DNA of 64,000 nucleotides, taken from IMG/VR virus record IMGVR_UViG_2703718819_000006. One strand, 5' to 3'. The position numbers and the translations under genes are program-made. Source of the DNA: a virus. Lineage: Duplodnaviria > Heunggongvirae > Uroviricota > Caudoviricetes. Of this stretch, positions 6,551 to 59,577 are shown piece after piece (position 1 is the stretch's first letter; each line of letters opens with the position of its first letter). Under the pieces are notes generated by a model that was not told the DNA's origin, ran no database searches, and was given only the letters and a program-made list of their open reading frames with translations.

Positions 6551-6564
6551 TTCTCGCTCCTACA

Positions 6565-6596
6565 AAAAGGGTGGGCGTATAGCCCACCCTTTAACA
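6565..6596 (-). terminator. hairpin AAAGGGTGGGC..GCCCACCCTTT followed by T-run on minus strand
   Basis: Inverted repeat seen directly downstream of capsid gene stop (6624). Confidence 0.5.
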
Positions 6597-6597
6597 T

Positions 6598-6613
6598 AGA
6601 TAATTACCTATCT
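6598..6613. promoter_or_regulatory. family-2 palindrome AGATAATTACCTATCT
   Basis: Palindrome in gap upstream of 5630..6550 start. Confidence 0.4.
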
Positions 6614-6623
6614 ACTACACTGA

Positions 6624-7502
6624 TTAAATTTTTACATTGGTCAGTGCAGCGATAGCCTTATCGTGCTTATTCGCCAGAGAGCAGTACCACTTCACACGGG
6701 TACGTACTGCGTCTTTGTTCTGTACAGTACCAATGTTTTCAACAACGATACCTGCGTTGTCGCCGCCATACAGACCAGTAACGCCGTTCTCTTCAGAAAG
6801 GTGCAGACAGTAGATATCCGCTTTGGTGGAGTCCACAACCGGAATGAAGTCGTTTACGATAAACGGAACGCCGTTATGGCACAGCATTGGTCGACCGAAG
6901 TTTTCCATCATGATTTCGGACGGGCCTACGTTTACAGTTCGCAGCAGCGCACGATATGCGCGAAGATGCTCAGAACGCATCATGATGCAGTCTGCGCCCA
7001 GATCTTTAACTGCGTCGACCAGTTCGTCGAACATAGAGAAAGTCATGGATGCGCCGGAGATGTCGATCTTCTGATCGTCATGCATCAGCTTCGGAATACC
7101 GTCGAAGGCTTTGTTGTTAGTGGTGGAGTCGCCAACAATCAGATTGCGACGGAAGGCACGAGCAAGACCTTTGACTTTCTGACGAACCTGGATAGCCAGC
7201 TGGTTGTTGGTATCAGCCATAGTGGTAGCCAGGAATTTGTCGACGTCAACGTCGCCAGCCAGAATGCGCAGCTTCGCAACTTTCTCTTCGAAGGTTGCTG
7301 CACCTTCGGTGATGGTGTCGTTCACATCAATGAAAGTAGCTTCGCTCAGCGTTTTTTCACGGTTGTACAGATATGCCTTTGAATTAATTTTCATAAAAGG
7401 CAGGATGGCAAACAGGTCATCGCGATCGATGATAGTTTCGATCACACCCTGTTCAAGTTCGTTGTTAGACAGCTTTTCAGCTTCTTCACGCAGTAATGGC
7501 AT
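6624..7502 (-). CDS. major capsid protein
   Basis: 292 aa ORF directly after scaffold-like coiled-coil protein and portal; highest-expression-style context with strong terminator downstream. Assignment by gene order, not motif. Confidence 0.55.
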   Translation of the reverse strand: MPLLREEAEKLSNNELEQGVIETIIDRDDLFAILPFMKINSKAYLYNREKTLSEATFIDVNDTITEGAATFEEKVAKLRILAGDVDVDKFLATTMADTNNQLAIQVRQKVKGLARAFRRNLIVGDSTTNNKAFDGIPKLMHDDQKIDISGASMTFSMFDELVDAVKDLGADCIMMRSEHLRAYRALLRTVNVGPSEIMMENFGRPMLCHNGVPFIVNDFIPVVDSTKADIYCLHLSEENGVTGLYGGDNAGIVVENIGTVQNKDAVRTRVKWYCSLANKHDKAIAALTNVKI

Positions 7503-7527
7503 CTATCAATTCCCTTTGATTTAGATG

Positions 7528-8415
7528 TTACTTAAGTCCAATTTTCCCCAGACCGGAGGCCAACTTATCCATAGTCGACTTGTTCTTCGGTTGGGATATT
7601 GTGTAGGTCGATTTGGAATGTGAGCCTACACCCTGCTTGGCTTCGCTACGCATCAATGCGTCAGCTTCCGGATCTGCCCGCACAATGCGTTCAATCGCGG
7701 ATTCAAACGGCAACGGCTTACCTTCACCGTCAACCAGAACAGCTCGTTCTTTATGACCTGCCGGTTTGTCATAACCCACTACGCTACCGTCTTCACCCAC
7801 TTCAAAATGAGAACCGTAGATCACGCGGGCTTTTGCCGGGGTCATCAGAACTTTGTCACGTAGGAAGAGAGAGTTACTGAAGGAAGCGCCCACGGTCATC
7901 TCGACTAATTGAGATTTCAGTGATGCGTTTTCACTTTCCAGTGCTGCATAACGTTCGTCACGCTGTGCCAGCTCTGCCTGGTGTGCTTCGATCATCTGTT
8001 TTTTAACAGCATCGAACTCACCACGACGCTCCAGTTCAGCTTGCTCCGCCTCACGACGTGCGTTTTCTGCGGCCTGTTCAGCTTCTAAAAGCTGGCGAGC
8101 ACGAGCCGGATCGATATCACCGTACTGAGCAAGCTGATCGGCCAATGTGCGCTCTTTCTCTTTGCGCTTCATGTTCTCCTTCAGCAGTTCAGCACCAGCT
8201 TTCTTGGTTTTACGAAGTTCGGCCAGTAACTCTTCCTGAGTCATGCCAGCGTATTCGTCATCGCCCTTCGGCTGCTCTTTTTGTTCACCCTGTTTGTCAG
8301 GATCTTGTGTACTCTGCTCATTATCAGCAGCTACACCGCCAGCGCCTCCACGCTCATGCGCTTCAGCGACATCCATCAGACCACGACGGGCCAAAAGCAT
8401 TTGCCACAGATTCAT
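7528..8415 (-). CDS. scaffolding protein
   Basis: 295 aa, highly charged, Glu/Ala/Arg-rich predicted coiled coil (EAEQAAENARREAEQAELERR...), between portal and capsid genes. Confidence 0.5.
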   Translation of the reverse strand: MNLWQMLLARRGLMDVAEAHERGGAGGVAADNEQSTQDPDKQGEQKEQPKGDDEYAGMTQEELLAELRKTKKAGAELLKENMKRKEKERTLADQLAQYGDIDPARARQLLEAEQAAENARREAEQAELERRGEFDAVKKQMIEAHQAELAQRDERYAALESENASLKSQLVEMTVGASFSNSLFLRDKVLMTPAKARVIYGSHFEVGEDGSVVGYDKPAGHKERAVLVDGEGKPLPFESAIERIVRADPEADALMRSEAKQGVGSHSKSTYTISQPKNKSTMDKLASGLGKIGLK

Positions 8416-8436
8416 AAAAATTCCTTTTGTTACTTA

Positions 8437-10011
8437 TCACTCGTTCTCTTGAGTAGATGAGTCCCCATTCCCTCGGGGTTGATCTTGCCCGCTTTCTTGG
8501 GCTGCACCACGATCATAAGTAAGTACTGACTTATTTTCAAGGGTATTTAGATCATTTTTTGGAGGAAAATTCAAGAGATCTTTATCAAATTCCTTTTTCA
8601 TCGCCTCAGTAATGTTCGGGAAAATCTTCTCAATAAGCATTTCCATCTGGTGACGACGTACAGAGTCCGGTGCCTGAAGTAATGACAGTTTCTCGGCAAC
8701 AGCAAATTCATCAGTAAGGCCACGAATATCGAAACTTTCTGGATACGCAATTAAAGAGTGGTCTTCGTCCAGATCTACCCCCATCCATTTCGCAACCAGT
8801 AGCATGATTTGGCGTTCAGCCCTTTCCAGACGCTCTGCTTTTGTGACAAGCAAGCTATTTACACGCTGGAAGTCATACATTTTTGCGGCACCAGATGAAT
8901 TATCGATTCCCTGTGCGTTGTCCTGCTTCGTTCGCTCACCAGCTACACCAACTGAATGGTAGATTTCGTTAATCACCGTCTTAATCGTAGTGATGATCAT
9001 CTGAGCTTGTTTCGGGTCTGGTGACAGATAAAACGGCTGGTTTCCACCTTCAGAATCGTAGGTGAAGACTCGCTTTGTGCCCATTTCAAGCACTTTAGTG
9101 TGGTTTTCATCACCAGGTAAAAGCGACTGTACCGGTATAGCCAACTGGCTAAATGTCTGATCCTGAATAATGGCATCAAGGTTTGACAGATAGTTTGCAA
9201 CCGCACGATCAAGATAAGCGATATCATCGATCAACGATGGGCTGAAATACGGTGATTCACTTTCTCCAATACAATCAACAGGAAACACAGGAACTACGCC
9301 GAGATTATGCTCACCGCTATCCTCTAAAATAACTTTTGCCTGACGGCGACCTGCTCCACCAGCGCCCTTCTTCACTTCCTCACGGAACAGATACCACTCG
9401 TTTTGTGTCCACAGACGATAACGTTGGTATTCCTGACCTGTAGAAGTAAAAGGATCTGCGTCATCACGAGCGACTTCCACAATTAACGCCCACAACATAT
9501 TCCCGTCGTCGTCCCATGCCACATCCAGCATTTGCTGAGGTGAAATCCAGTAGGCGTAGGCGCGAGCATCTTTCTTTTTCTCGTCAGCTACTGACTCAAC
9601 ATCACCACTCATCGTGCTATCGACAACAACCCATATGCGACCGTAAATAGACGACTGCAAATCAATAGCGGCCATAAATGAGTCAATAGAGGCATTCTGG
9701 CGAGTCGCACGTTTCCAGAAATTGCGGATCTGCTCTGGTGCCTCTTCGATATTTCTATGAATGTCTTCTTTAAAGAGATATTTGTTGATGAGGTTTACCA
9801 CCTCACGAGTGTGGTTGAAACGATAAGCACGCTCAACTCGCTCCTTAAACTCCTGATCTCCCTCTTTAAAGTAACGAAAGATATTGTCTGTAAACCAACC
9901 ACGCCCGCCAGCGTAAGTGCTGGCGAGGAAGTCCCAATGTTCTTTTTTCTTTTCGTATTCCGGGTGGCGTCGCGCCACCAGATCCTTAATTTGTTTGTCG
10001 TTCAATTCCAT
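8437..10011 (-). CDS. portal protein
   Basis: 524 aa ORF immediately downstream of terminase large subunit; size and position typical. Confidence 0.6.
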   Translation of the reverse strand: MELNDKQIKDLVARRHPEYEKKKEHWDFLASTYAGGRGWFTDNIFRYFKEGDQEFKERVERAYRFNHTREVVNLINKYLFKEDIHRNIEEAPEQIRNFWKRATRQNASIDSFMAAIDLQSSIYGRIWVVVDSTMSGDVESVADEKKKDARAYAYWISPQQMLDVAWDDDGNMLWALIVEVARDDADPFTSTGQEYQRYRLWTQNEWYLFREEVKKGAGGAGRRQAKVILEDSGEHNLGVVPVFPVDCIGESESPYFSPSLIDDIAYLDRAVANYLSNLDAIIQDQTFSQLAIPVQSLLPGDENHTKVLEMGTKRVFTYDSEGGNQPFYLSPDPKQAQMIITTIKTVINEIYHSVGVAGERTKQDNAQGIDNSSGAAKMYDFQRVNSLLVTKAERLERAERQIMLLVAKWMGVDLDEDHSLIAYPESFDIRGLTDEFAVAEKLSLLQAPDSVRRHQMEMLIEKIFPNITEAMKKEFDKDLLNFPPKNDLNTLENKSVLTYDRGAAQESGQDQPRGNGDSSTQENE

Positions 10012-10022
10012 TTGAATAACCT

Positions 10023-10042
10023 TAGATAATTACTTACCTATC
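10023..10042. promoter_or_regulatory. family-2 palindrome TAGATAATTACTTACCTATC
   Basis: Overlaps TerL stop, 12 bp upstream of portal start. Confidence 0.4.
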
Positions 10043-11294
10043 GAGAACCACCAAGAATAACACGGTTTTTGACTGGATACCTACGATGTACTGGATAGCC
10101 CAATGCGTCTGCACTATGCTCAATGCCACCTGTCTTATCCATATCTCGTGTTCCAGGCTTGTAGATGACTTTTTCCAGTGAATCAATCAAATGCTTGCAC
10201 TTCGGATCGATATACAACCGGATATCTCCAGATGCGGTCATCAGCATTCGGTTAACAGCATTAACACGATCCGCAATTGGCGGGTGCTTTTTCGAATAAT
10301 CGACACGTAAGAATCCCTTCTCTTTGAATATGTCGACGTCAGACTCCCCGCGAGCATGTTGGCGATAAGCACCTGCCGGATCTGGAAATACCGTTATCTG
10401 TGATTTCCAGCGCCAGAAGCGTCTCTCAAGCTCATCACAAACCTCTGCCGTGTTAGAGGAAAAGAGCACCAGTTCATCAATTGCCCATAGCTCACCGTTT
10501 GGCTGAGGTTGCAAAATTACGGAAGACATCGGGTCAATGTTGAAGTCCTGCCCTACCCATATAGGCAACCGAGGGTTGAACTGAAGCGGTTTTACATGCA
10601 CGTTACGATCGAACGGGTAGTAAACGCGCCCGGACATATTTTCAAAGCTGGCCAGGTACTCCTGAGCGAACGATTTAGGGTCCATATCGTTCTTAGCAGC
10701 TTCAATTTCCGCCGTAGGCACAAACGGAGAATCAGCAGTTACAAACTGCCAGCTCTTCCACTGTCCCTTTCTTTGCAGCTCTACGTTCTGGCCTATAGTC
10801 CACAGTTTGTGAAATTCCGAGAAGCCTTTTGGCGTACCAATGATCAGTGCACCGCCGCGTGTCGATGAAAGGGTAGGTCGTAGCACCTTGTACCAGGTGT
10901 CAGCCTTCATATCCTGAAATTCATCAAGCACTACAAAATGCAATGCAACGCCGCGCAGAGTGTCAGGCTTATCAGCACCTTTGAGGGCGATCTCCGAACC
11001 GTTCTTCAACACGATTGTCATCGTGGTGTCGTTCTTTTTCCTAACCCACTTACGAGGCAGAACTTCCTGTATATCGTCCCACAAAATCTGGCGAGCCATC
11101 TGGTAAGTAGGAGCGACATACCAGACCCTTTGCTTTTTTTCCTTTGCCGCCGCACGAATAATAGTGGAGATCGACAACCGGGATTTTCCCCAGCGTCGAC
11201 CAGCACAAACAACTTTAAATCGATGCGGAGACTGGAAGACTTTCATCTGTCCAGAATGCAGTTGCACAAGACTGAGCGAGGACGGGATTGCCAT
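10038..11294 (-). CDS. terminase large subunit
   Basis: 418 aa; N-terminal Walker A (VVCAGRRWGKS), Walker B-like VLDEFQD, C-terminal nuclease-like region; preceded by small-terminase-like gene. Confidence 0.8.
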   Translation of the reverse strand: MAIPSSLSLVQLHSGQMKVFQSPHRFKVVCAGRRWGKSRLSISTIIRAAAKEKKQRVWYVAPTYQMARQILWDDIQEVLPRKWVRKKNDTTMTIVLKNGSEIALKGADKPDTLRGVALHFVVLDEFQDMKADTWYKVLRPTLSSTRGGALIIGTPKGFSEFHKLWTIGQNVELQRKGQWKSWQFVTADSPFVPTAEIEAAKNDMDPKSFAQEYLASFENMSGRVYYPFDRNVHVKPLQFNPRLPIWVGQDFNIDPMSSVILQPQPNGELWAIDELVLFSSNTAEVCDELERRFWRWKSQITVFPDPAGAYRQHARGESDVDIFKEKGFLRVDYSKKHPPIADRVNAVNRMLMTASGDIRLYIDPKCKHLIDSLEKVIYKPGTRDMDKTGGIEHSADALGYPVHRRYPVKNRVILGGSR

Positions 11295-33147: not shown

Positions 33148-33701
33148 TACGATGCCTCTAACTTGTCTAACTCTTTCAGCCCTTCACGTACCGCGTTCAC
33201 AATGCGTTCCAGATACTGGTATTTCGGGTTTGGTACCGTTGGCCAGTCGGCATACCACGGATCATCACCAAAGAGATTCAGCAGTTTGTTACCGACGCCG
33301 AAACAACAGCAGCTTTCTTTTACGTCATCGGCGTTTTCCGCCTCGTCCCACATTTCACGAGCCAGTACGGCGTCGATTTCTCTCTCTCTTCGTAACTTTA
33401 TGATTTCTGACTTCACGAAAAGCAGATTTGCATCGTTGTCATCGTCGACCGTGCTTAGCAGTTGAGGGTCGAAATTGTCGATTAGATAATCGTTGCTAAC
33501 TCGCTTAATGAACGTCTGCACATCATCACCGCCCATAGCAAACCAAGCCGCAGTCCACGCTTTTCCGTAGCAGGTGATGGTGATTCTTCCCTTACCAGGT
33601 TCGTAGTTTTCAATCATCACTCGAACCGGATCGAGACGCTCCAGCTCTGTCAACACAAAGGAAAGAACATCTATTTTTTCTACCTTCATGCAGCCTCCCA
33701 C
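33147..33701 (-). CDS. hypothetical protein
   Basis: 184 aa. Confidence 0.4.
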   Translation of the reverse strand: MGGCMKVEKIDVLSFVLTELERLDPVRVMIENYEPGKGRITITCYGKAWTAAWFAMGGDDVQTFIKRVSNDYLIDNFDPQLLSTVDDDNDANLLFVKSEIIKLRREREIDAVLAREMWDEAENADDVKESCCCFGVGNKLLNLFGDDPWYADWPTVPNPKYQYLERIVNAVREGLKELDKLEAS

Positions 33702-34327
33702 GCGCTCCAGATCAGCGATTTGTGTTTTTCATAACGTTTGATGTGTACCGGTTTCAGAAGCGCAATACCTTCAGTGACTTTCGCCTTTGCGCTTAATAAC
33801 AACGGGTGTTCTATACCTATCCTCTCCATGTACTCGACAACATCAGCGTTGGCACCAATCTCCTTCCCGTTAAAAAGTACGTCCAGCATCAGCTCTTTCT
33901 CTGCAAGGTAGATAGCTGAAAACTCAGGATCGCGACTCACGATAGAAGAGGTATTGTCGAGCAGGTCAGCCAGCTTGATCATGCGCGTCTGCATGTCGAG
34001 ATTTTGCTCCAGCTCCCGGACATTGATGATGAAACGCTGTATTCGATTGCCGTCTTCTGGCCTTGCAATGTTGGTCAGAGCCTGAACCATTTCAGCTACG
34101 TGATCACCGAAGTGATCACGAACCATCTCTATGGTTACATGGGTGTCTTCGACCACATCATGCAGAAGCGCCGCGATTTGCATCTCCACGGTTCCGTCAT
34201 GCAATGCAACAATCTCTCGGACAGCAACCGGGTGGTTGATGTAGTTTTCGCCGGTATATTTTCTTTTCTGACCAACGCCACCATGAGCGCCAGCGGCGAA
34301 CATATGTGCTTCGGAAATACTAGACAT
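33686..34327 (-). CDS. HD-domain phosphohydrolase, RelA/SpoT-type small alarmone hydrolase-like
   Basis: 213 aa; HPVAV...ALLHDVVEDT motif characteristic of (p)ppGpp hydrolase HD domains. Confidence 0.6.
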   Translation of the reverse strand: MSSISEAHMFAAGAHGGVGQKRKYTGENYINHPVAVREIVALHDGTVEMQIAALLHDVVEDTHVTIEMVRDHFGDHVAEMVQALTNIARPEDGNRIQRFIINVRELEQNLDMQTRMIKLADLLDNTSSIVSRDPEFSAIYLAEKELMLDVLFNGKEIGANADVVEYMERIGIEHPLLLSAKAKVTEGIALLKPVHIKRYEKHKSLIWSAWEAA

Positions 34328-35575: not shown

Positions 35576-35595
35576 AGGTAAGTATTTACCTATCA
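35576..35595. promoter_or_regulatory. family-2 palindrome TAGGTAAGTATTTACCTATC
   Basis: In gap upstream of 35531 start. Confidence 0.45.
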
Positions 35596-37278
35596 TTTAA
35601 CGCGTTTGAAAACGTATACGCTGACTGTGATCCCTGTGTCTTCAAACTCGTTGGTAAACGACTTCCCTCTGGCATAAACGTAATTATCCATCGTCATCCA
35701 GTCCAGTATTGGCGCAGTGCCCGGCAATACTGCTACAAGACGCCCGCCGACTTTCAGATGCCCCAGCGCAGCCAGCGTGTGCTCTCTATGACGACCAAGC
35801 GAGTACGGCGGGTTCATAACGATTTTGTCGAACTGATAACCTACGTTGTCCTCAGACCACTTTATGAAGTCGCAGCAAATCGTGTTCGTATACCCTTTTC
35901 CGCGCAGGATATCAGCGAAGAGAGGTGCGATTTCTATGCAGGTAACATCTTCCAGATCGGCGTTGATATAGGCCAGAAGATCCCCACGTCCGGCTTGAGG
36001 CTCCAGCAGCTTCTCACCAGGCTTCAATTCAGTGGCTCTGGCAACGTACTCAGCAATCAAGCGTGGGGTAGGGTAGAACTGGTGTGATTTTGTATCCGGT
36101 ATTAATCCGGTAGCCACAATCGTATTTAGCGTATGGCCGATCTCATACGGGAACTGCCAGTGCTTTTTCTCCTGCACGCCGCCAATGAAGCTCAGTGTGC
36201 GCTCAAGCTCTTCCACCTGCGACTTCTGGAGAGCTGAATCAGAGAAGTACCATACGCCTTTGTCTTTGCTTAATCGCCCGTCACGAAGCGCAGTGCGAAC
36301 CGGCACGGAGATCGTCTTCTGGATTAACCCGAACTGCTTTGGTGCCCGTGTTTTTGGCGCGGTGCGACATGGCGCGGGGATTGCAGCAGGCATACTGTAA
36401 GCCAGCACCTCATTCAACTTCCAGGCCACGTCAGGATGTATTTCAAAGTGAACGTTGCCGTTCTTGAACATCTTCACGCGCATTAGATTTCCATCGACGT
36501 TCATCCAGTCACCGGTCTGGCAGTCGTTTGCCCGATACGCAGCTGATAGCACCTCAGCAGTGCGGTTGATGGTAATAAATTCTTTGTGCGCGAAGAAATG
36601 AAGCAAGACACGCAGATCGTCGATATAGTCCTCTTTGCGATAGTTCACACTAACGCTGTCCCGCCAGAAATCAGAAATGCAGTCAGCGATTATCAGACGT
36701 TCGCTGAAACCGTTTGTCTTATTTGTCTTGTGCGCAGGACTCAGCGCCTTAAACAAGCCATACACGCGCTCAGAGAGATATTTGTGCCTGTCATTCAGCA
36801 AATTAAGCATCGTGGGTATGACCGTTTCTGCTTTGAACTCCGGTACACCAACGAACTCTTTAACCTTCATCTGGTAGCCGGTTCTGTCAGTTTTGATGAC
36901 TTCCTGTTTGCCCTCTATAAACTGCTCGCGCCACTCATCTCGACGGGAAGCTGGCATGATCAGCAAAACGTTAGTCATGTCCGTGACCTTCCTCCAGTAC
37001 TCGGCCCAAATATTCTGTTTCACCCATTCCAGATCGACTTTATCCAACCAACCTCGATTTAAACGCGAGCGATCTTCATCTGGTCGATGGTTTAGTCTCA
37101 GCAGGCGATTAATCATGTTGTGGCGTTCGTCGCCATAAACGAAGTCGTGTACCTGATACATGAAGGCGATCTCTTTCTCGCACTCGGCCACAATTTCGTG
37201 GATGACGTTCATTTCCTGCCGATAGTCGATAGCAGTGTTTGAGTTGGCATCGTCGATGATGGAAAGGGCTGTATTCAT
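35593..37278 (-). CDS. N6-adenine DNA methyltransferase with large N-terminal domain of unknown function
   Basis: 561 aa; C-terminal FYPTP...EPQAGRGDLL...NPPYS motifs (SAM-binding and catalytic NPPY). Confidence 0.6.
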   Translation of the reverse strand: MNTALSIIDDANSNTAIDYRQEMNVIHEIVAECEKEIAFMYQVHDFVYGDERHNMINRLLRLNHRPDEDRSRLNRGWLDKVDLEWVKQNIWAEYWRKVTDMTNVLLIMPASRRDEWREQFIEGKQEVIKTDRTGYQMKVKEFVGVPEFKAETVIPTMLNLLNDRHKYLSERVYGLFKALSPAHKTNKTNGFSERLIIADCISDFWRDSVSVNYRKEDYIDDLRVLLHFFAHKEFITINRTAEVLSAAYRANDCQTGDWMNVDGNLMRVKMFKNGNVHFEIHPDVAWKLNEVLAYSMPAAIPAPCRTAPKTRAPKQFGLIQKTISVPVRTALRDGRLSKDKGVWYFSDSALQKSQVEELERTLSFIGGVQEKKHWQFPYEIGHTLNTIVATGLIPDTKSHQFYPTPRLIAEYVARATELKPGEKLLEPQAGRGDLLAYINADLEDVTCIEIAPLFADILRGKGYTNTICCDFIKWSEDNVGYQFDKIVMNPPYSLGRHREHTLAALGHLKVGGRLVAVLPGTAPILDWMTMDNYVYARGKSFTNEFEDTGITVSVYVFKRVK

Positions 37279-37381
37279 AATTGCACCATTAAGAAGTGAT
37301 TTGTTTAATGGTGCAATTATTTCAAAAATGAAAAGGTACTAAATAGAAATAAACAGGCAATCCTTCAAATAAAGGCATTGG

Positions 37382-38053
37382 CTAATCATACTTGGAGGTA
37401 TTTATCACCAGAATTTTGTTTGTATAAATCTTCTTAATATCCCATGTGACATTACCGGAATACCATTGACCGTTATATACTTGGTTTCCAGTTGCACCTG
37501 TCATTGTTACATAGACAGGTCTGTCGTAATCGGTTCGTCTATAGTTATATACCCCAACCATAGCAGGCATTACCGCACATGGATACCCCATATCTATTGT
37601 AAATTGAGGGTCAGAAATAGTGATAAGTTTCGCATCAAGGGGCATCATCTCACCGTGATACACCATTGCGCCTGCGCTGTTATACATGGCAATGCCATAG
37701 CCAGAATGTGGTAACACCATATCAGAAAAAGCATAAACTGTTATTGTTCCGGGGCTACCATTTACCTGATGCAATCTGAGAGCATTGTATCCGTTACTAT
37801 GCTCATGAATAAACATCATGTTCGCCTTATTACTGCTTTTTATGAAGAAAAAGCATGATTTGTTTGATGGGATTGATGTTTGAAAAACAGAACCTTTAGA
37901 TGTAGACATTGTCCCTTTATTAATCAGATTTTGCGGAGTAAATTCTGGACTCATCCACAAACTTCCATCTGATTGAGTAATTGACATCCCGAACATAATT
38001 ATCCCCAGTATGTGTATATGTAAGAACCAAGCCCCGTATATAAATTTGACCAA
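37382..38053 (-). CDS. hypothetical exported/membrane protein, AT-rich gene
   Basis: 223 aa; hydrophobic N-terminus; visibly AT-rich codon usage versus neighbours. Confidence 0.4.
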   Translation of the reverse strand: MVKFIYGAWFLHIHILGIIMFGMSITQSDGSLWMSPEFTPQNLINKGTMSTSKGSVFQTSIPSNKSCFFFIKSSNKANMMFIHEHSNGYNALRLHQVNGSPGTITVYAFSDMVLPHSGYGIAMYNSAGAMVYHGEMMPLDAKLITISDPQFTIDMGYPCAVMPAMVGVYNYRRTDYDRPVYVTMTGATGNQVYNGQWYSGNVTWDIKKIYTNKILVINTSKYD

Positions 38054-38280
38054 CTAACCGTATTTCCATTAATAGTAACTGTTGGAACAGGTAAATTAAT
38101 GTAGTTGTCGTTGTTAAGAGGCATCAATGACCACACGGCATGTAGCGATTTACCCGGTGGCGGATTGGAGTACGTCTTAGAGCCTGATGACGCAGTAAAT
38201 CGATCAAGAAAAAAAATAGGAGTAAGGAAGCCAGTAACGTTAATTCCTTTATTGTTGTAAATCCCTGTACCGTATGCCAT
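37999..38280 (-). CDS. hypothetical small protein, AT-rich gene
   Basis: 93 aa. Confidence 0.3.
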   Translation of the reverse strand: MAYGTGIYNNKGINVTGFLTPIFFLDRFTASSGSKTYSNPPPGKSLHAVWSLMPLNNDNYINLPVPTVTINGNTVSWSNLYTGLGSYIYTYWG

Positions 38281-38335
38281 TTTTCATCCTTGTTTTTTAT
38301 CAACACAATATGGCCGATCATGCGGCCATATCAGA

Positions 38336-38905
38336 TCAATTAGAGCTTTGAAAGGCTTTGTGTGGCTGTGTTGCGAGGTTATGTCGATGGCTTAACTCAC
38401 GCATCATGTCTTCAAGCCGACTCTTTGTGTCGTCGAGTTGGTCGGCCATTGCTCCCAAAAGCTGACGAACGGCCATCGGATCATCGCTGTTTAGTGATGG
38501 CATTTTATAACCCGCCTGAGAAGACATAAGATTGAACGCAGACATCAACATCGTTAGAGAGGATTTAAGCCCAGCAATTTCACGATCTTTGCTGGCAATA
38601 ATCGCCTCACTCTTGTTAGTGTCATCAGTTCGTTGAGTCTCGCTCACCATATCCAAAGTCGCCTGCAACTTATCAGCGCGCTCTTTTTCAGCAAGATAAT
38701 GAACACCGAAATGATGTGCTAAAGCTACAACCTGAGTTGGCTCTTCAAAGGTGGACTCAAAATTAAGTGCTGTAACCACTCTCTCAAATATGGAAACGTC
38801 TTCTATTCCTCGAAGAATGGCTAACATTTTGACCAGTTCATTAGCATCCATTTCTTCGAATAAGGCGTTTTGTTCATCAGCTATCGCTTTGCATTTCTTG
38901 CACAT
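38336..38905 (-). CDS. hypothetical coiled-coil protein
   Basis: 189 aa. Confidence 0.4.
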   Translation of the reverse strand: MCKKCKAIADEQNALFEEMDANELVKMLAILRGIEDVSIFERVVTALNFESTFEEPTQVVALAHHFGVHYLAEKERADKLQATLDMVSETQRTDDTNKSEAIIASKDREIAGLKSSLTMLMSAFNLMSSQAGYKMPSLNSDDPMAVRQLLGAMADQLDDTKSRLEDMMRELSHRHNLATQPHKAFQSSN

Positions 38906-38923
38906 GTGTTTTTCCTAATGCTT

Positions 38924-38939
38924 AAACAAGTTGTTTTCT
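38924..38939. promoter_or_regulatory. family-1 motif AAACAAGTTGTTTTCT
   Basis: Upstream of 38905 start. Confidence 0.5.
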
Positions 38940-39202
38940 TATTGGCTTTATTGTGATGTGGCATAAAAGGGGAGCAAGCTAAACGTAAAGGTGCAAACTC
39001 TCTATTTCGGTCAACGAAACACAAGGGCCATTTGGCCCTTGTCATTAACACGTTGCTTTACGGACTAGCGGATAAGCGAAGTAGATCGCCAGACCAATGA
39101 GGACGCCATCAGAAATGACAGACATCATCTTTCCCGTAAAATCCACCAACACCGCCATCACCAGAAGAGCAATGACGGTCACAAGCCGGAATCTCTCAAG
39201 CA

Positions 39203-39628
39203 TTAGAGATAAGCATCCAGTGACAACTGAAGCGCCTGTGCGATCTTTTTCAGGGCCAGCTCTTCTTGTTCGCCAATACCGTCTTGGTCGGCAATATCAA
39301 GGCACAGACACAGTACATCTACTGCATCATTAGTCCCGGCCACATCAGCCAGCTCACGTAAAGCCTGGGCATTAGCGCGGCGCGGTGAGGCTTCGTATTG
39401 AGCACGGATATTGGCACTCATTTGGGCAATCTCACCAGCAAACGGAGAAAACGCAGGCAGAGCTGCAATTGTTTTCTCAAGAATGGAAATTTCCTTTGCG
39501 TCGCATGTGCCATCGGCATAGGAGATCATGTACGCGCCCCACACGGTGGCTTCAACCGCATCTCGGTTCTCCATTTTTTTGACCTCGATAACAGCTTTAC
39601 GAGTTTTCTTTTTGAATAAACCTAACAT
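39203..39628 (-). CDS. TerB-like (tellurite-resistance TerB domain) protein
   Basis: 141 aa; paired acidic DG motifs (ISYADGTCDAKEISILEK / IADQDGIGEQEELALKKI) typical of TerB fold. Confidence 0.5.
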   Translation of the reverse strand: MLGLFKKKTRKAVIEVKKMENRDAVEATVWGAYMISYADGTCDAKEISILEKTIAALPAFSPFAGEIAQMSANIRAQYEASPRRANAQALRELADVAGTNDAVDVLCLCLDIADQDGIGEQEELALKKIAQALQLSLDAYL

Positions 39629-39651
39629 GTGCTTTCCTTTTGTTATTTGTT

Positions 39652-39668
39652 AAAACAAGTTGTTTTCT
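39652..39668. promoter_or_regulatory. family-1 motif AAAACAAGTTGTTTTCT
   Basis: Upstream of 39628 start. Confidence 0.5.
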
Positions 39669-39721
39669 AGTTACATGAATTGCTTACGAAAAGACGGTCA
39701 ATGCATATGCACTAACAACCG

Positions 39722-39910
39722 TCAGAAATAACCAAGTACCGAACCGACTGGAAAAACAAAAATCCCAACAACACGAGCCAAGGTCATACCAGCCTGAAAC
39801 TGGAGATCACCAGAGCAAACGAGTTTTACAATGTTCGATACCCAACCGGCGACCATAAGGGCAAGAATTGCCAGCCAAATTTTTCCAAAGTGATTTGAAA
39901 ACCAGTTCAT
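39722..39910 (-). CDS. small membrane protein
   Basis: 62 aa, two hydrophobic segments. Confidence 0.35.
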   Translation of the reverse strand: MNWFSNHFGKIWLAILALMVAGWVSNIVKLVCSGDLQFQAGMTLARVVGIFVFPVGSVLGYF

Positions 39911-40158
39911 ACAACCGCCTTAGTCACAGCATGATCCTGAGTAACTGGATGAACTTGAGGTATCGCATCCACCGTCATCCCATCCAGAGTGACAGGACGC
40001 TCTACTGGAGTGGTGGTAATTGTCGTCGACGGAGGTGTGGTGATGGATGAACCCGGCATCAAAAGGCTCTGGCCGGCTGGAACGGCTACCGTCGCCAGTG
40101 AAACTATAATGAGAACGTAGGCCATTGGTTTCAGCCTCTTTCTTTGAAAATTTTCCAT
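39907..40158 (-). CDS. small exported/membrane protein
   Basis: 83 aa; N-terminal hydrophobic helix then Thr/Pro-rich segment; overlaps alternative frame 39920..40414. Confidence 0.3.
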   Translation of the reverse strand: MENFQRKRLKPMAYVLIIVSLATVAVPAGQSLLMPGSSITTPPSTTITTTPVERPVTLDGMTVDAIPQVHPVTQDHAVTKAVV

Positions 40159-40559
40159 TCGAACTGTCCTTGTTGTTTTTCTCCTTCACTAAAGGCCGTG
40201 TACTTTTCGCTTCGCGTGAAGAACCAGAGGTAACAATCGCCCCCACGTTCGCAACAACTGACGCTTGCTTATCTAAACGTTCATTCAGCAACCGAACGGC
40301 AGTCTCTAGTTCATCAAGACGTGACAGAACACGACCGCTAAATAATTCGGCCAAAATTTGACGTAGTGAACGAGGACGTTTAGTTGCAGAAGTGAAATAG
40401 GTTTGACGTGCCATGTGGACTCCATCCAGTGTCAGAAAGAGTTGCGGCTGGCGATTGCCAGCCGCCTTTCTCGTTCCATCCTGGAACTGTGTCTTACCGA
40501 CACATTGTCATCCTGACGCCGATAAGATACATGATTTAAAATGATAGGTAAACACTTAC

Positions 40560-41153
40560 TTACTGCTTGTTGTAAACAAAACCAATATCTTTCTTGTGAG
40601 GCATATCTGCTGCGGAAAAAGCTGCGATCTTCGCGAGTCGATCACATATTTCATTTTCACGATGCCCGGCGTGACCTTTAACCCACTTCCAGCGAACATT
40701 ATGTCGACTTGCAGCCTCATCCAGACGCTTCCACAGATCAACATTCTTTACCGGTTTTTTGTCAGAAGTCACCCATCCATTGCGTTTCCACCATTTCATC
40801 CACTGTGTCATGCCGTTTTTCAGATACTGGCTATCAGAGTGCAAAATAACGTTGCATGGATATTTCAAACGCTCCAGCCCGATAAGTGCCCCCATCATCT
40901 CCATGCGGTTATTGGTGGTGCTATGAAAACCATCTGAGAACTCGCGTTCCTCACCACGATACTGGAGAACGATACCGTAACCGCCCGGGCCACCCGGATT
41001 TTTAAGGCAAGAGCCATCACTAAAGATTTTCACGGTTTTAAGCTGGGGATTGAACTCTACGACAGGCGTTGTGGGATTGGTGCGGGGGGAATTTTTGTTT
41101 TTGGCTTTTTTGCGAGTTTTTGCTTGCGATCGAGCTGGTGTCTTCGTCGTCAT
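40560..41153 (-). CDS. rnhA: ribonuclease HI with basic N-terminal extension
   Basis: Start at ATG 41153 (SD AGGAG); core [17 protein letters not shown]...TNNRMEMM...HSDSQY...[15 protein letters not shown] matches RNase HI catalytic motifs. Confidence 0.8.
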
Positions 41154-41735
41154 ATAAACTCCTGAATCAAGCGCCGCGCCGATTTTTCCTCGCGCGTGCG
41201 CACACGCGTGCGTGTTAATAATTATTAAAATAAACAAATTACTTCCCAGAACAGGTTTTTATAAACCTGAACTGAACGAACGAAGTGAGTGAAGTTCACC
41301 TCGAACGAAGTGAGAGGTTGTCTTTTCAGGTAATACTCTCCCAGGGAGGTGAGTATAAAAATCTCTCACCAACCTGGTCGTTTCATAACCTGAAAAGTTA
41401 TGGTCTAAGTCTACTGCCAGCTTAGACTTGGGAAGTTATGGATGACAGCACCCCAGAACCGAGATCTTCCCACACTTTATGAAGGGGAGTACTGGATTCA
41501 ACCTCTCGAAACACCCCAGACTCGACAATCATAAAGTGACCCTTGTCTCCGCTCACTTTGGTTCCCCCTTCCCCGACACCTAAACGGCACCAGTTCTACG
41601 CTGGTAGTGAGCTTTTTTAAACCTGACGCCAGTGACGCTTACCCCCACCCATCAGGTCGAGTCTCCAGTCTACGACTGGAAACTATCAGATCTTAGCACT
41701 TACAATTCACTTTATGAATAGTTTGTACTTATCTA

Positions 41736-41990
41736 TCATTGTGATTGATTATTTTCTCTACCATGTAGTTGAACATTCAAGGCAAACACCTCATTGATCA
41801 ACTCACCTAAAAGCTGTTCAACAAGTTCGCGATGCTCGCCAAGATGCAAGCACTTAATTGCCCATTCGTACAAGTTGAAAGCCTGCTCACGATCTTTCAT
41901 CATTTCACGAGCCTGGGCCAGAAAATCGCTCTCTACGAGCGCAACGACATTAGTCGGGTATGACATGTTGGTTTCCTTAAAGTGGTTCAT
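41736..41990 (-). CDS. hypothetical protein
   Basis: 84 aa. Confidence 0.35.
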   Translation of the reverse strand: MNHFKETNMSYPTNVVALVESDFLAQAREMMKDREQAFNLYEWAIKCLHLGEHRELVEQLLGELINEVFALNVQLHGRENNQSQ

Positions 41991-42071
41991 AAAATCGATT
42001 TTAAAGCGTCTGGGAAGGGGTTCTAGTGGATTCTGTAGTGATGTTCAGGTCTGGAGTCTCTGATACAAAAC

Positions 42072-42130
42072 AGCCTGCTTCCGTATATTAATAATTAATA
42101 TGTAGTTATTTATATATACAGAAGCAGGCT
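42072..42130. repeat. long palindrome AGCCTGCTTCCGTATAT..ATATACAGAAGCAGGCT (copy of 12043-12098)
   Basis: Seen in sequence; same arm sequence and same single C/T asymmetry. Confidence 0.7.
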
Positions 42131-42151
42131 AATTACAGACGCCAGAACAAA

Positions 42152-42745
42152 CTAAGCAACCTTCTTTGATGGTCTTTTTTTCCTGATCACATTCGCAGGA
42201 TCATACCCTCCCAGACTTTTCATGACGTCCAAAGGGATCTTGCTTATAGAGTGCCCAGCGTCCTGACAGAATCCTCGAAAAACAACGAGCATACTGCCAC
42301 CTGGGTTGATGTTTACTTCTACCTGACCCAGATTGACGTCAGGCTCGACAAACGCTACGCGGCCACCAGACAGAATAATCGTCTCATTCGCACACTCTGT
42401 TGCACGCTCATACCACTTTGTATCTAGGGATTGAGGAATTAGCATCACTGTTGTAACTCCGCGAGCCTGCTCACGTATAGCAGCATCAATCCAGGGGGAG
42501 ATTTTGGAGTAGGGTGGATTGAGGAAGGCAATTGTACCTGGCTGTCCCCATTCAGATTTCAAAGCATCACGCTCAATGCCTATGAAATTAGGCAGCTTTG
42601 CGTTGTCCTTGTTGCAGGCAACGTCAACATCAAATGTCACTCCAAGATAACGTTGAATGGCAGAAAACAGCCAATCAGGTGTTCTCCAGAGGTCACGAAG
42701 AGAGTTGTCGCGCTTTCGCTGTTTGATTTTTTCGGCTGCAATCAT
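42152..42745 (-). CDS. phage-type N6-adenine DNA methyltransferase (Dam-like)
   Basis: 197 aa; WRTPDWLF...LNPPYS motifs. Confidence 0.7.
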   Translation of the reverse strand: MIAAEKIKQRKRDNSLRDLWRTPDWLFSAIQRYLGVTFDVDVACNKDNAKLPNFIGIERDALKSEWGQPGTIAFLNPPYSKISPWIDAAIREQARGVTTVMLIPQSLDTKWYERATECANETIILSGGRVAFVEPDVNLGQVEVNINPGGSMLVVFRGFCQDAGHSISKIPLDVMKSLGGYDPANVIRKKRPSKKVA

Positions 42746-42756
42746 CTTCTTTCTCG

Positions 42757-42776
42757 ATAGGTAAGTGATTACCTAT
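42757..42776. promoter_or_regulatory. family-2 palindrome ATAGGTAAGTGATTACCTAT
   Basis: Just upstream of Dam-like start. Confidence 0.45.
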
Positions 42777-42811
42777 TTTTGCATTTGATTTTATGTATGG
42801 CAATGAAATAA

Positions 42812-42860
42812 AACGCGCCAGAAATGCAAACGAGAAGCTCTCTGGCGCGTTTTTGTGGTG
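42812..42860. terminator. hairpin GCGCCAGA..TCTGGCGC with T-runs on both strands
   Basis: Seen downstream of 42929 stop. Confidence 0.45.
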
Positions 42861-57779: not shown

Positions 57780-57978
57780 AATCGTTTTTTCAGTAGTTAT
57801 TGGCCGATGCTACGATAACTCATTAGGCATACCTTAATCTGCATTTGCCTGTTTACTTATCCCAGTTATCCACTGGATAGATCCAAATAAGAGATCCCAA
57901 GTAAGATCAAATAGAAGATCCAAAGAGATCCCCGATCGCCTCTAGCCGTTGCGGTTACTGGTCTGAAAGGGTGTTGCC

Positions 57979-58080
57979 ATCCACTATGGAGAGCAAAGAA
58001 ACCTCTGTAGAGAGCTGAATAACCGCTATGAAGAGTAAAACAACCACTCTGGAGAGCTGTATATATCCACTGTAGAGAGT
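57979..58080. repeat. iteron array A: five 16-bp repeats (A/T)(T/A)CC(A/G)CT(A/G)T(A/G)GAGAG(C/T) at 21-bp phasing
   Basis: Units at 57979, 58000, 58021, 58042, 58065. Confidence 0.75.
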
Positions 58081-58238
58081 AGAGCACATTGTCTTTTATG
58101 GATAACTTAATGACTTAATTCTTCATTAACATACTGATATACATAGATATATTTTAAACTCTACTCTTAGTCATGATTCTTATGTCCTTAAATATCCACA
58201 GAAGAGTAGAGTTACCTGTTCTTGAAATCCTCTGATTT

Positions 58239-58247
58239 TTATCCACA
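58239..58247 (+). promoter_or_regulatory. consensus DnaA box TTATCCACA
   Basis: Exact 9-mer between AT-rich tract (58085-58200) and iteron array B; second near-consensus box TTATCCACT at 57866-57874. Confidence 0.55.
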
Positions 58248-58358
58248 GGCCCGATCCAGTAATTCAGATCACAAAGAGAACCAAAGAGACCCATAAAGAC
58301 CCAATAAGATCCCCGCCCACCTCAAACCGTTGTGCCATCTGCCTTCAGACATGATCGA

Positions 58359-58481
58359 TATCCACTATAGAGAGCGAATAATCCACTATAGGGAGCAAAG
58401 CAACCACTATAGAGAGGAGAAAAACCACTATAGACGGTAGGATAACCGCTGTGATGAGTGCTACTATCCACTGTAATCAGC
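58359..58481. repeat. iteron array B: six repeats ATCCACTATAGAGAGC-type at 21-22 bp phasing, directly upstream of rep
   Basis: Units at 58359, 58381, 58402, 58423, 58444, 58466. Confidence 0.75.
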
Positions 58482-58521: not shown

Positions 58522-59577
58522 ATGAGCGAAAACGGCAATAAAAACATAGCGATCGTTGAAGCATTTTCAGAAACAGATAAAAAGACAGGCGAAGTTGTTA
58601 CGTTGGTTCCTAACACTAATAACACTGTTCAGCCTGTTGCTTTGATGCGTCTGGGCCTCTTCGTTCCGACGCTGAAATCGACATCCAGAGGAAGAAAGGG
58701 GCAAATGGTCTCTATGGATGCCTCTGCTGAACTCAAACAGCTGTCTCTGGCAAAAGCCGAAGGGTACGAAGACATAAGGATCTCTGGCCTTCGGCTTGAT
58801 ATGGATAACGACTTTAAAACGTGGGTGGGAATAATCCACGCGTTTGCCAAACACAAGGTCGTTGGCGATACTGTCACGTTGCCGTTCGTTGAGTTTGTAA
58901 GGCTGTGTGGCATTCCGACCGCCAGGTCATCAGCGAAGTTACGCAAACGCCTGGACAGTTCGCTAAGCCGTATTGCCACAAACACCATCTCGTTCCGTAG
59001 CAAAGGCTCTGATGAGTTTTACGTAACGCATCTTGTGCAAACGGCAAAATATAGTGTCAAGCACGATACGGTCGAACTGAAAGCAGATCCCAAGATTTTC
59101 GAACTCTACCAGTTCGACAAAAAGGTTCTTCTGCAACTCCGGGCTATAAACGAACTCTCAAGAAAAGAATCCGCTCAGGCGCTTTATACTTTTATTGAAA
59201 GTTTGCCGCCTGATCCGGCACCAATATCACTAGCCCGTTTACGCGCCAGACTTAATCTGACAAGTCGCACTATTACTCAGAATGCGACGGTAAGAAAGGC
59301 TATGGAACAGCTGCGAGAGATAGGATATCTCGATTACACGGAAGTTAAGCGCGGAAACTCGGTCTACTTCGTCATCCACTATAGGCGGCCAAAGTTACGC
59401 CAGGCACAAATATCAACAAAAATCGATAATGATGAGACGGAATATAGCCTCCCAGATGAGAATCAAGATGACATTATCGACGTTGTGCCTGACGAAAAAG
59501 AAGGCAAAATGGTCATGTTGAGTAAAGAAGAACTGGCACTTCTCGAAGAGTTGCGCAAGGCAAAGACTCGCAAATAG
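58522..59577 (+). CDS. iteron-binding replication initiator (Rep)
   Basis: 351 aa plus-strand ORF flanked on both sides by iteron arrays with DnaA box and AT-rich tract; assignment by architecture. Confidence 0.6.

Follow-up and report, generated by a model that had tools for sequence, protein, structure and literature searches.

Methyltransferase genes of the element

The analysed window, a 64-kb stretch of viral DNA (IMG/VR record IMGVR_UViG_2703718819_000006), carries two methyltransferase genes, hereafter ORF A and ORF B, both on the minus strand and with exactly the coordinates, stop codon included, given in the initial annotation. A six-frame scan of the window, covering stop-to-stop segments 80 aa or longer, found the pattern [DNS]PP[YFW] in these two ORFs only. 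The features of the two loci are as follows:

35593..37278, minus strand: ORF A, 561 aa, ATG start, DUF4942 plus class I SAM-dependent (N6-adenine type) methyltransferase (ORF listing, phrog_6263 match)
35596..36093, minus strand: catalytic methyltransferase domain of ORF A, aa 396–561
35803..35814, minus strand: motif IV NPPY of ORF A, aa 489–492
36094..37278, minus strand: N-terminal module of ORF A, aa 1–395
36394..36861, minus strand: Pfam DUF4942 match in ORF A, aa 140–295 (PF13708, 74 bits, cut-off 25)
37277..37320, minus strand: perfect 16-bp hairpin with a 12-nt loop (RNA fold)
42152..42745, minus strand: ORF B, 197 aa, ATG start, phage T1/Stx-phage-type N6-adenine DNA methyltransferase (PF05869, TIGR01712)
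42509..42520, minus strand: NPPY motif of ORF B, aa 76–79
42775..42853, minus strand: terminator-like hairpin, then UUUUAUUU, then a sigma-70-like promoter (RNA fold, consensus scan)

On the basis of sequence identity (98.3% to phage CMS-2020a, 97.7% to Cyrano, and 83% to SSU5), the source of the window is assigned to the SSU5-like phage-plasmids of E. coli, a well-known type of element; many E. coli "plasmids" of ~110 kb show 99.5% identity to it. Both ORFs are conserved across the SSU5-like group. They share the NPPY motif and belong to unrelated families, in agreement with the initial proposal of two distinct adenine-type methyltransferases. Our main reading, which we regard as reasonably probable, is that the two genes of this phage-plasmid specify orphan DNA N6-adenine methyltransferases that are independent of each other and have a protective or regulatory role. 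No methylation data for ORF A, ORF B, or close homologues were found in the searchable literature.

ORF B is a Dam of the phage T1/Stx-phage type

ORF B matched the Pfam family PF05869 "Dam" (130.6 bits, cut-off 28.1), TIGR01712 "phage N-6-adenine-methyltransferase" (113.6 bits, cut-off 97.05), and phrog_111. PF05869 was its sole Pfam match at E <= 0.1, and membership in the D12 class of E. coli and T4 Dam was rejected, since the D12 profile PF02086 had no match; the Dam of the IncHI2 plasmid, by contrast, does match PF02086. The compact enzyme initially described as "Dam-like" is thus a member of the phage T1/Stx-phage family and not of the E. coli Dam D12 family. It resembles the Dam proteins of phage T1 and Stx phages (VT2, 933W) in the NPPY motif, in the ~170–200 aa size typical of the family, and in being encoded by a stand-alone gene in a temperate enterobacterial phage.

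GATC is the site methylated by T1 Dam and VT2 Dam. ORF B most likely methylates GATC as well; given its identity of just 39% to the dam product of Stx phages and ~30% to T1-like Dam (~27–31% among the T1-like phages), this specificity is inferred. A reference on VT2 Dam is cited in PMC7556043.

A candidate sigma-70-like promoter (TTGCCA-17-TG-AAAAAT, 42803–42775) lies directly upstream of ORF B and is preceded by a terminator-like hairpin at 42810–42853 (dG −26.2, z −6.7), which is followed by UUUUAUUU. Promoter and terminator, both identified as consensus matches only, suggest that ORF B begins its own transcription unit.

GATC sites and the plasmid origin

The window also contains a plasmid replication region with the following features:

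57863..58480, plus strand: plasmid origin of two ~380-bp tandem units (sequence, repeat families D1–D6, GATC cluster)
58522..59577: repA, Rep3-type, downstream of the origin (Rep3_N/Rep3_C domains)

The "GATC-rich origin" mentioned in the initial annotation is real and corresponds to this P1-oriR-like region at 57863–58480, upstream of the Rep3-type repA, where six GATC sites occur within 62 bp (57880–57937) versus ~0.27 expected from the window-wide density. Across the whole 64-kb window, GATC is not over-represented (278 sites observed versus 319 expected under a Markov model), which counts against our main reading. Unit 1 of the origin comprises TTATCCAC, five AGATC(C/A) repeats (57879–57931), one further GATC, and five 21-bp-spaced iterons, while unit 2 comprises TTATCCACA, decayed repeats (AGAACC, AGACCC), and six iterons.

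The plasmid origin of phage P1, oriR, combines DnaA boxes with iterons and five 7-mers that contain GATC; its function needs adenine methylation, and P1 encodes its own Dam. The window origin is similar in its DnaA-box-like TTATCCAC, in the five AGATC(C/A) repeats spaced by 10–13 bp, in the 21-bp-spaced iterons, and in the Rep3-type initiator, and the element likewise encodes its own Dam-type enzyme. Unlike P1 oriR, the origin unit of the window is tandemly duplicated, with the GATC motifs decayed in the repA-proximal copy, and the Dam of the window is of the T1 type whereas that of P1 is of the Dmt type. The probable function of ORF B is to maintain full methylation of the many GATC sites of the element (278 in 64 kb, the cluster at the P1-oriR-like origin included) at times when host Dam is in short supply; this methylation would serve both protection and origin control. 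To our knowledge, Dam is already present in all enterobacterial hosts, which leaves an added value of ORF B hypothetical and counts against our main reading.

Catalytic domain of ORF A

The profile phrog_6263, "DNA methyltransferase", spans the whole of ORF A (aa 1–561 against profile positions 1–548 of 548, E 1e-299), and NCBI clusters named "DUF4942 domain-containing protein", with more than 1000 members, are 99% identical to it. An AF2 model of the protein had a pLDDT of 82.7, and its methyltransferase fold resembles those of solved gamma-class enzymes. Motif X (QFYPTP, aa 400–405), motif I (EPQAGRG, aa 426–432), and motif IV (NPPY, aa 489–492) are invariant across 24 homologues, down to 34% identity; N489, P490, and P491 of NPPY are unchanged in all of them, and P427, A429, G430, and G432 of motif I, as well as E449, the acidic residue after strand 2, are invariant. 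The motifs follow the gamma order X, I, IV, and the phmmer alignment is collinear with M.TaqI residues 22–110. With these motifs intact, the catalytic part of ORF A constitutes a minimal N6-adenine methyltransferase core of the gamma order.

ORF A differs from known gamma-class N6-adenine DNA methyltransferases (M.TaqI, M.BseCI, CamA, and the cores of the Pfam N6_Mtase and HsdM types) in that it carries ~395 additional residues N-terminal to the core and has no C-terminal target-recognition domain, since the protein stops ~70 aa past NPPY and these 69 residues form core strands and helices. Moreover, it fails to reach the gathering score of Pfam N6_Mtase (PF02384; 13.4 vs 20.4 bits), which counts against our main reading.

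The substrate of ORF A is probably DNA. Its methylating RNA instead (adenine N6 in rRNA or tRNA, or guanine N2), or protein glutamine, and so altering host translation during infection, appears improbable. Weak Pfam and NCBIfam matches to RrnaAD, KsgA, and Erm would fit such an activity, as would the match of ORF A relatives to the MTS "small domain" family and the fact that NPPY/NPPF is common to RNA and protein methyltransferases too. However, the DNA methyltransferase models match ORF A many orders of magnitude better (PADLOC mad2, 8.5e-16; type II MTase, 3.8e-10; phrog_15406, 2e-19), while the NCBIfam RNA methyltransferase models, at 1e-3 to 7e-3, are far under their cut-offs. Both M.TaqI and the N-terminal motif of Pfam N6_Mtase also align to QFYPTP, and the neighbours of ORF A family genes are other DNA methyltransferases, SSB, exonucleases, and anti-restriction genes.

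The hairpin at 37277..37320 covers a GGUG Shine-Dalgarno-like element and ends within the start codon of ORF A, on its A and U. Its folding energy is −20.6 kcal/mol (z −5.8), and none of 200 shuffled sequences folds as well. It is identical in Cyrano, while RNA folding revealed no significant hairpin at the ORF A start in the SSU5, Klebsiella, and Providencia relatives; the structure is lineage-specific.

N-terminal module of ORF A

The large N-terminal part of unknown function initially noted in ORF A is indeed present, although it extends over ~395 rather than ~350 aa, with the core starting from about aa 396, and it is not wholly anonymous, since it contains DUF4942 at aa 140–295 and is covered by phrog_6263 from end to end. 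The possibility, also raised initially, that it is a common linker did not hold: in the AF2 model, it forms a confidently folded module (pLDDT ~80) of three parts, namely helical segments at aa ~20–121, a DUF4942 core at aa ~96–300, and a small basic alpha/beta domain (pI 9.7) at aa ~301–395, and it is conserved more than the catalytic domain. No solved structural relative of the ~395-aa module was detected. In the searchable literature, DUF4942 is mentioned in just four papers, each time in passing, and no experimentally characterised member of the phrog_6263 family is apparent there.

All 16 aligned homologues match PF13708. The invariant residues of DUF4942 include R171, S180, H183, T185, N186, G190, F191, and D221, and further R223, W258, D262, G263, H277, H281, P282, and N289. 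In one mosaic protein, P0045, identity is 94% in DUF4942 and 49% in the methyltransferase domain; therefore, the two parts are exchangeable modules.

The most likely contribution of the N-terminal module is DNA binding or targeting. The putative DNA-contact elements of DUF4942 hardly vary between hosts, and the ORF A family would therefore probably have one short or relaxed specificity, and not a diversified one. Such very high conservation is nevertheless atypical of a specificity-determining domain and counts against our main reading. It would suit a conserved partner better than a diversifying DNA specificity, and one could propose that the module serves for recruitment or tethering rather than target recognition, binding either single-stranded DNA or a component of the replication or DNA-entry machinery, so that the core methylates nascent or single-stranded DNA with low specificity. 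The near-invariant loops shared by Enterobacterales, Aeromonas, Pseudomonas, and Variovorax, the higher conservation of DUF4942 relative to the catalytic domain, and the exchange of modules in P0045 are in line with this proposal, while searches of the module revealed neither an interaction motif nor a known partner-binding fold. We consider tethering rather unlikely.

Distribution and genomic contexts of the ORF A family

Rather than being peculiar to this element, the fusion is the usual architecture in a very large, already catalogued family that occurs in phages, prophages, and conjugative plasmids. The DUF4942-methyltransferase arrangement is the norm in 611 clusters at 50% identity, nearly all of 500–580 aa, and the family extends to lambdoid prophages and, IncHI2 included, to no fewer than 2136 plasmid records. 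Full-length homologues were found in Aeromonas phage 56, Pseudomonas phiPSA1, and Variovorax and Enterobacterales prophages, and the protein of IncHI2 plasmid pRDB9 is 30% identical to ORF A across 561 aa (E 1e-86). The IncHI2 and lambdoid members (phrog_6263) have the same full-length architecture, often with a second methyltransferase of another class nearby; ORF A does not differ from them in kind and represents the SSU5-group orthologue.

Six contexts were inspected, namely the window, two lambdoid prophages, Aeromonas phage 56, Pseudomonas phage phiPSA1, and IncHI2 pRDB9. A nuclease partner beside the ORF A family gene was found in none of the six, and a second methyltransferase of another class lay near the homologue in four of the five outside the window. 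For both window methyltransferases, no nuclease is adjacent, which bears out their status as orphans lacking a restriction partner. It is accordingly very improbable that one or both form the modification half of a restriction-modification or defence system (MADS-like or BREX-like) excluding competitors. Phage-plasmids do carry defence systems, and mad2, the methyltransferase of MADS, is the PADLOC model that ORF A matches best, with type II methyltransferase models matching too, but the similarity is limited to the catalytic core (aa 394–523). The five neighbouring ORFs scanned in the window had no match to PADLOC models, no nuclease or defence-associated ATPase domain was found by Pfam in its flanking ORFs, and the annotated neighbours in Cyrano and RefSeq plasmids are Ea22/Eaa/Eae-like proteins, TerB, RNase H, and hypothetical proteins, with no nuclease among them.

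The catalytic core has relatives outside this architecture, some embedded within giant phage proteins. A stand-alone one (33% identity, E 2e-16) is encoded by IncF plasmids, where its gene is flanked by ardA and ssb-psiB in the anti-restriction neighbourhood of the leading region (PMC7736820); therefore, the core may not strictly need DUF4942, which argues against our main reading. This position next to ssb-psiB, together with the constant location of the ORF A family gene in replication or early regions, also favours tethering, for which replication-coupled, promiscuous (SAY) orphan methyltransferases protecting entering DNA provide a precedent (PMC7736820). These enzymes, M.EcoGIX and M.BceJIII, are plasmid-encoded, single-strand-specific orphan m6A methyltransferases that shield incoming DNA from restriction (PMC7736820). 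Like ORF A and ORF B, they are orphans of mobile elements; they sit in anti-defence neighbourhoods, and an M.EcoGIX-type gene shares the same IncF leading region with the stand-alone relative of the ORF A core. However, they belong to the beta class, with a DPPY motif and membership in Pfam N6_N4_Mtase (PF01555), lack DUF4942, and are unrelated in sequence to ORF A and ORF B, neither of which matches PF01555, both having NPPY and ORF A the gamma motif order. Both this lack of kinship with M.EcoGIX and the double-stranded state in which phage-plasmid DNA enters the cell count against tethering.

Both methyltransferase genes are already catalogued in public databases, and the finding is in this respect an ordinary, already annotated one. 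Under our main reading, the ORF A core lacks its own target-recognition domain and forms a permanent fusion with a ~395-aa module of DUF4942 and a small basic domain. Most likely, this module would bind DNA and position the catalytic domain, which would then flip an adenine and methylate its N6 with SAM. ORF A would thereby create a second methylation pattern, which would shield the DNA of the element from host restriction systems.

Genomic context of the two methyltransferase genes

Over the 8 kb surrounding the two methyltransferase genes, the sequence shares 98.3% identity with Escherichia phage CMS-2020a, 97.7% with phage Cyrano, 83% with Salmonella phage SSU5 and up to 99.5% with many non-mobilizable E. 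coli "plasmids" of ~110 kb, which identifies the window as part of an SSU5-like phage-plasmid. The SSU5 match is broken into three pieces that together account for just 60% of these 8 kb, and part of this neighbourhood therefore has no counterpart in SSU5. Two N6-adenine methyltransferases, one of them with a large N-terminal domain, had been proposed in the initial annotation, and both reading frames, each with an NPPY motif, were confirmed:

35593-37278, minus strand: ORF A, 561 aa, DUF4942 and an N6-adenine-type methyltransferase core (aa 396-561), NPPY at aa 489-492
42152-42745, minus strand: ORF B, 197 aa, Dam of the phage T1/Stx-phage type, NPPY at aa 76-79

A six-frame scan of the 64 kb for [DNS]PP[YFW] revealed no third candidate. 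In public databases, ORF A is described as "DUF4942 domain-containing protein" or "putative DNA modification methylase", and ORF B as "phage N-6-adenine-methyltransferase"; the ORF A protein, exact or near-exact, represents clusters of more than 1000 member sequences. There are hundreds of sequences of SSU5-like phage-plasmids, and both genes, which carry annotations in GenBank, RefSeq, PHROGs and Pfam, are ordinary members of described families on a familiar class of element. The initial observation is correct and its interpretation reasonable but generic; the remaining interest lies in the DUF4942 module, which is very widespread, uncharacterised and without structural relatives.

Both genes are located in an extended leftward cluster of early genes for DNA metabolism, including those for ribonucleotide reductase, an SbcC-like ATPase, a DnaQ-like exonuclease, RNase H, an HD-domain protein and TerB, along with Ea22/Eaa/Eae-like genes. 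A search of five neighbouring ORFs against a defence-system library yielded no match, and Pfam detected no nuclease domain in the flanking ORFs; therefore, both enzymes are orphans, and it is very improbable that either of them is part of a defence system.

Several other features of the window were recorded. The segment at ~37424-38223, directly upstream of ORF A (ORFs 37382-38053 and 37999-38280), has ~78% DNA identity with the unrelated siphophages JenP1, JenP2 and BRET, where its counterparts are annotated as membrane or outer-membrane proteins, and it has the appearance of a mosaic insertion. A 213-aa HD_4/HD-domain protein (E 1e-18) is encoded at 33686-34327 on the minus strand, three genes downstream of ORF A; in a Klebsiella phage-plasmid contig (L007), its gene immediately precedes the homologue of ORF A. 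The tetranucleotide CTAG is strongly under-represented in the whole window, with 28 occurrences versus 90 expected under a Markov model (ratio 0.31), while the other 4-bp palindromes tested occur at 0.75-1.17 of expectation.

The Dam-type enzyme and the plasmid origin

Matches to Pfam PF05869 "Dam" (130.6 bits, threshold 28.1) and NCBIfam TIGR01712 "phage N-6-adenine-methyltransferase" (113.6 bits, threshold 97.05) place ORF B in the phage T1/Stx-phage Dam family. Its earlier description as Dam-like thus holds for this family and does not extend to the E. coli D12 Dam family, to which no match was found. The protein shares 39% identity with the dam product of Stx-converting phages and about 27-31% with that of T1-like phages; no relative of solved structure was found by sequence. 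The GATC specificity of T1 Dam and VT2 Dam is established, and by analogy with them, at 39% identity, ORF B most likely recognises GATC as well. The reference for VT2 Dam is cited in PMC7556043. The non-specific enzymes Hia5/Hin1523 were considered as members of the T1-Dam family and discarded: they carry DPPY, are relatives of E. coli/T4 Dam and are therefore uninformative on ORF B.

The gene is preceded by the following feature:

42775-42853, minus strand: terminator-like hairpin, then a sigma-70-like promoter, just upstream of the ORF B ATG

The hairpin is strong (dG -26.2, z -6.7) and is followed by UUUUAUUU; it has an A-tract before it and a U-tract after it. Because such elements precede the start codon, ORF B may form its own transcription unit, separate from the upstream genes, as far as consensus matches indicate.

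The proposal of a GATC-rich origin was borne out, since six GATC sites lie within 62 bp upstream of repA versus about 0.27 expected. The origin is arranged as follows:

57863-58480: plasmid origin, two ~380-bp tandem units, upstream of the Rep3-type repA (58522-59577)
57863-58080: unit 1 (distal), TTATCCAC, five AGATC(C/A) repeats, one further GATC and five iterons
58239-58480: unit 2 (repA-proximal), TTATCCACA, six iterons, GATC repeats mostly decayed (AGAACC, AGACCC)

Both units combine a DnaA-box-like TTATCCAC(A/T), AGATC(C/A)-type repeats and iterons spaced by 21 bp; in unit 1 the AGATC(C/A) repeats are 10-13 bp apart and the iterons 21 bp apart. Neither avoidance nor enrichment of GATC is seen window-wide, where 278 sites versus 319 expected under a Markov model are close to expectation (ratio 0.87). 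The function of P1 oriR depends on adenine methylation, and its layout is resembled by that of the window origin, with DnaA-box-like sequences, GATC repeats and iterons; a regulatory role of Dam methylation at this origin, by the host enzyme or by ORF B, is therefore plausible. ORF B and the P1-like GATC-repeat origin also provide a simple system in which to examine self-supplied methylation control of plasmid replication.

The catalytic core of ORF A

The PHROG family 6263 "DNA methyltransferase" matches ORF A over its whole length (E 1e-299). In an alignment of 24 homologues, with identities down to 34%, the motifs QFYPTP (400-405), EPxAGxG (426-432) and NPP(Y/F) (489-492), as well as E449, are invariant, and the enzyme is therefore very probably active. 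The region aa 403-494 is collinear with M.TaqI in phmmer, and the motif order is of the gamma type. However, gamma-class enzymes are defined by a C-terminal target-recognition domain, which ORF A lacks, since its chain stops 69 aa after NPPY.

Superposition of the AF2 model (pLDDT 82.7) gave values of 18.9 for METTL5, 17.4 for M.BseCI, 17.3 for M.TaqI, ~17 for KsgA/Erm, 16.6 for CamA and ~16.5 for HsdM. An RNA or protein substrate appears quite improbable. At the sequence level, DNA methyltransferase profiles (phrog_15406, 2e-19; PADLOC mad2, 8.5e-16; type II MTase, 3.8e-10) are far ahead of the RNA methyltransferase models, which were matched at E values of 1e-3 to 7e-3, far under cut-offs.

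A second hairpin is located at the start of the gene:

37277-37320, minus strand: perfect 16-bp inverted repeat with a 12-nt loop (RNA dG -20.6, z -5.8)

It spans a GGUG Shine-Dalgarno-like element, has its end on the A and U of the ORF A initiation codon, and could block the start of translation or serve as an operator. Cyrano shares it, whereas SSU5 and the Klebsiella, Providencia and prophage relatives lack it; being restricted to the E. coli lineage, it was rejected as a conserved regulatory element.

The N-terminal module of ORF A

An N-terminal domain does precede the methyltransferase, but the non-catalytic part comprises ~395 aa rather than the ~350 first estimated. A domain search left its description as a domain of unknown function standing, in that no informative relative was found, and placed Pfam DUF4942 at aa 140-295 (74 bits, threshold 25). 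Instead of a common linker, this region (aa 1-395, hereafter the N-module) is a conserved three-part module:

aa ~20-121: long helices
aa ~96-300: DUF4942 core, mixed alpha/beta, with the invariant flexible loop LSPxHKTNKxxGFS
aa ~301-395: small basic alpha/beta domain, pI 9.7

Foldseek against BFVD matched the N-module to just two viral proteins, both uncharacterised and about 250-270 aa long, the N-module HMM profile had no match among PDB sequences, and Pfam found only DUF4942 in 16 homologues; these fold and profile searches thus revealed no solved structural relative. Across phage-plasmid lineages the DUF4942 segment is better conserved than the catalytic domain, with identities of, for example, 55-63% versus 48-54% in homologues from Xenorhabdus, Providencia and relatives. 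The homologue P0045 is a mosaic: its DUF4942 segment shares 94% identity with that of the window protein, but its methyltransferase domain, which resembles Klebsiella-type sequences, only 49%, a pattern indicative of recombination between the modules.

Since DUF4942 is nearly invariant, a common or relaxed specificity throughout the family is predicted. Tentatively, the N-module could be an accessory domain of methyltransferases not described before, whose fold lacks a relative of solved structure. It might be a DNA-recognition module giving the whole family one conserved or relaxed specificity, or couple methylation to replication or DNA entry; possibly, the invariant residues H183, D221, R223, D262, H277, H281 and N289 constitute a second active site, and the protein would then be bifunctional.

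Distribution and gene neighbourhoods of the family

An exhaustive HMMER search with the N-module retrieved 611 clusters (50% identity), of which 157 had E <1e-30. Almost all represent proteins 500-580 aa long that are matched at the N-terminus, so the apparent fusion is the standard form of the family. Among the 5000 records listed in a tblastn search of plasmids, at least 2136 had coverage of at least 80%, and 3293 were conjugative. Homologues were found in the following contexts:

Homologues of ORF A in other mobile elements
Variovorax lambdoid prophage, early region: full-length; neighbour N6_N4 methyltransferase
Enterobacterales lambdoid prophage, early region: full-length; neighbours N6_N4 and C5 methyltransferases
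Aeromonas phage 56: full-length; between ant and ninG
Pseudomonas phage phiPSA1: full-length; neighbours another methyltransferase, SSB and exonuclease
IncHI2 plasmid pRDB9: 30% identical over the full length, E 1e-86; D12-class Dam two genes away

In unrelated mobile elements, a second orphan methyltransferase of a different class (D12 Dam, N6_N4_Mtase or C5) adjoins the DUF4942-methyltransferase, as at the comparison loci L009 (pRDB9, 6351-10635), L002 (8001-10936), L004 (4948-12320) and L012 (2122-6500). Groups of two or three methyltransferases seem to recur, and because pRDB9 carries a D12-class Dam, the pairing of a Dam-type enzyme with a DUF4942-methyltransferase recurs with a non-homologous Dam.

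The ORF A-type core is also embedded in giant phage proteins, and occurs as a stand-alone 187-aa class I methyltransferase with NPPF (33% identity to the ORF A core, E 2e-16) in the conjugative leading region of the IncF plasmid pECO-bc6 (L010, 6914-7477). It lies between ardA and ssb-parB-psiB, with a DUF3560 gene upstream; an M.EcoGIX-type gene is present beside it, yet distinct from it. The DUF3560 protein was rejected as a split N-module (hhalign probability 0.4%).

Possible roles of the two methyltransferases

We rather favour the view that both proteins are orphan enzymes that methylate adenine in DNA to the benefit of the element itself. ORF B would then most likely methylate GATC, while the ORF A core, devoid of a recognition domain of its own, would most likely rely on the N-module to bind or target DNA, and its activity would add a second protective methylation pattern. 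Alternatively, and with lower probability, the N-module could tether the enzyme to the replication or entry machinery for low-specificity methylation, similar to M.EcoGIX in working and not homologous to it. An assignment of DUF4942 proteins to the M.EcoGIX type of plasmid methyltransferase was dismissed, since M.EcoGIX is a beta-class DPPY enzyme (PMC7736820).

Searches of the literature retrieved no methylome or biochemical data bearing on these readings, and neither methylome data on SSU5/pHCM2-type elements nor a methylation motif of the DUF4942-methyltransferase family or a role of its N-module. A recent screen reported few anti-defence systems in SSU5-group elements; two conserved orphan methyltransferases might constitute the principal anti-restriction equipment of this group, so far overlooked. 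Members of the DUF4942-methyltransferase family abound on clinically relevant mobile elements, being carried by SSU5-group phage-plasmids of E. coli, Salmonella Typhi, Shigella and Klebsiella, by IncHI2 resistance plasmids and by many temperate phages. If the N-module is indeed an undescribed accessory domain, the family, present on thousands of phage-plasmids and IncHI2-type resistance plasmids, would therefore represent a widespread, unrecognised anti-restriction device.
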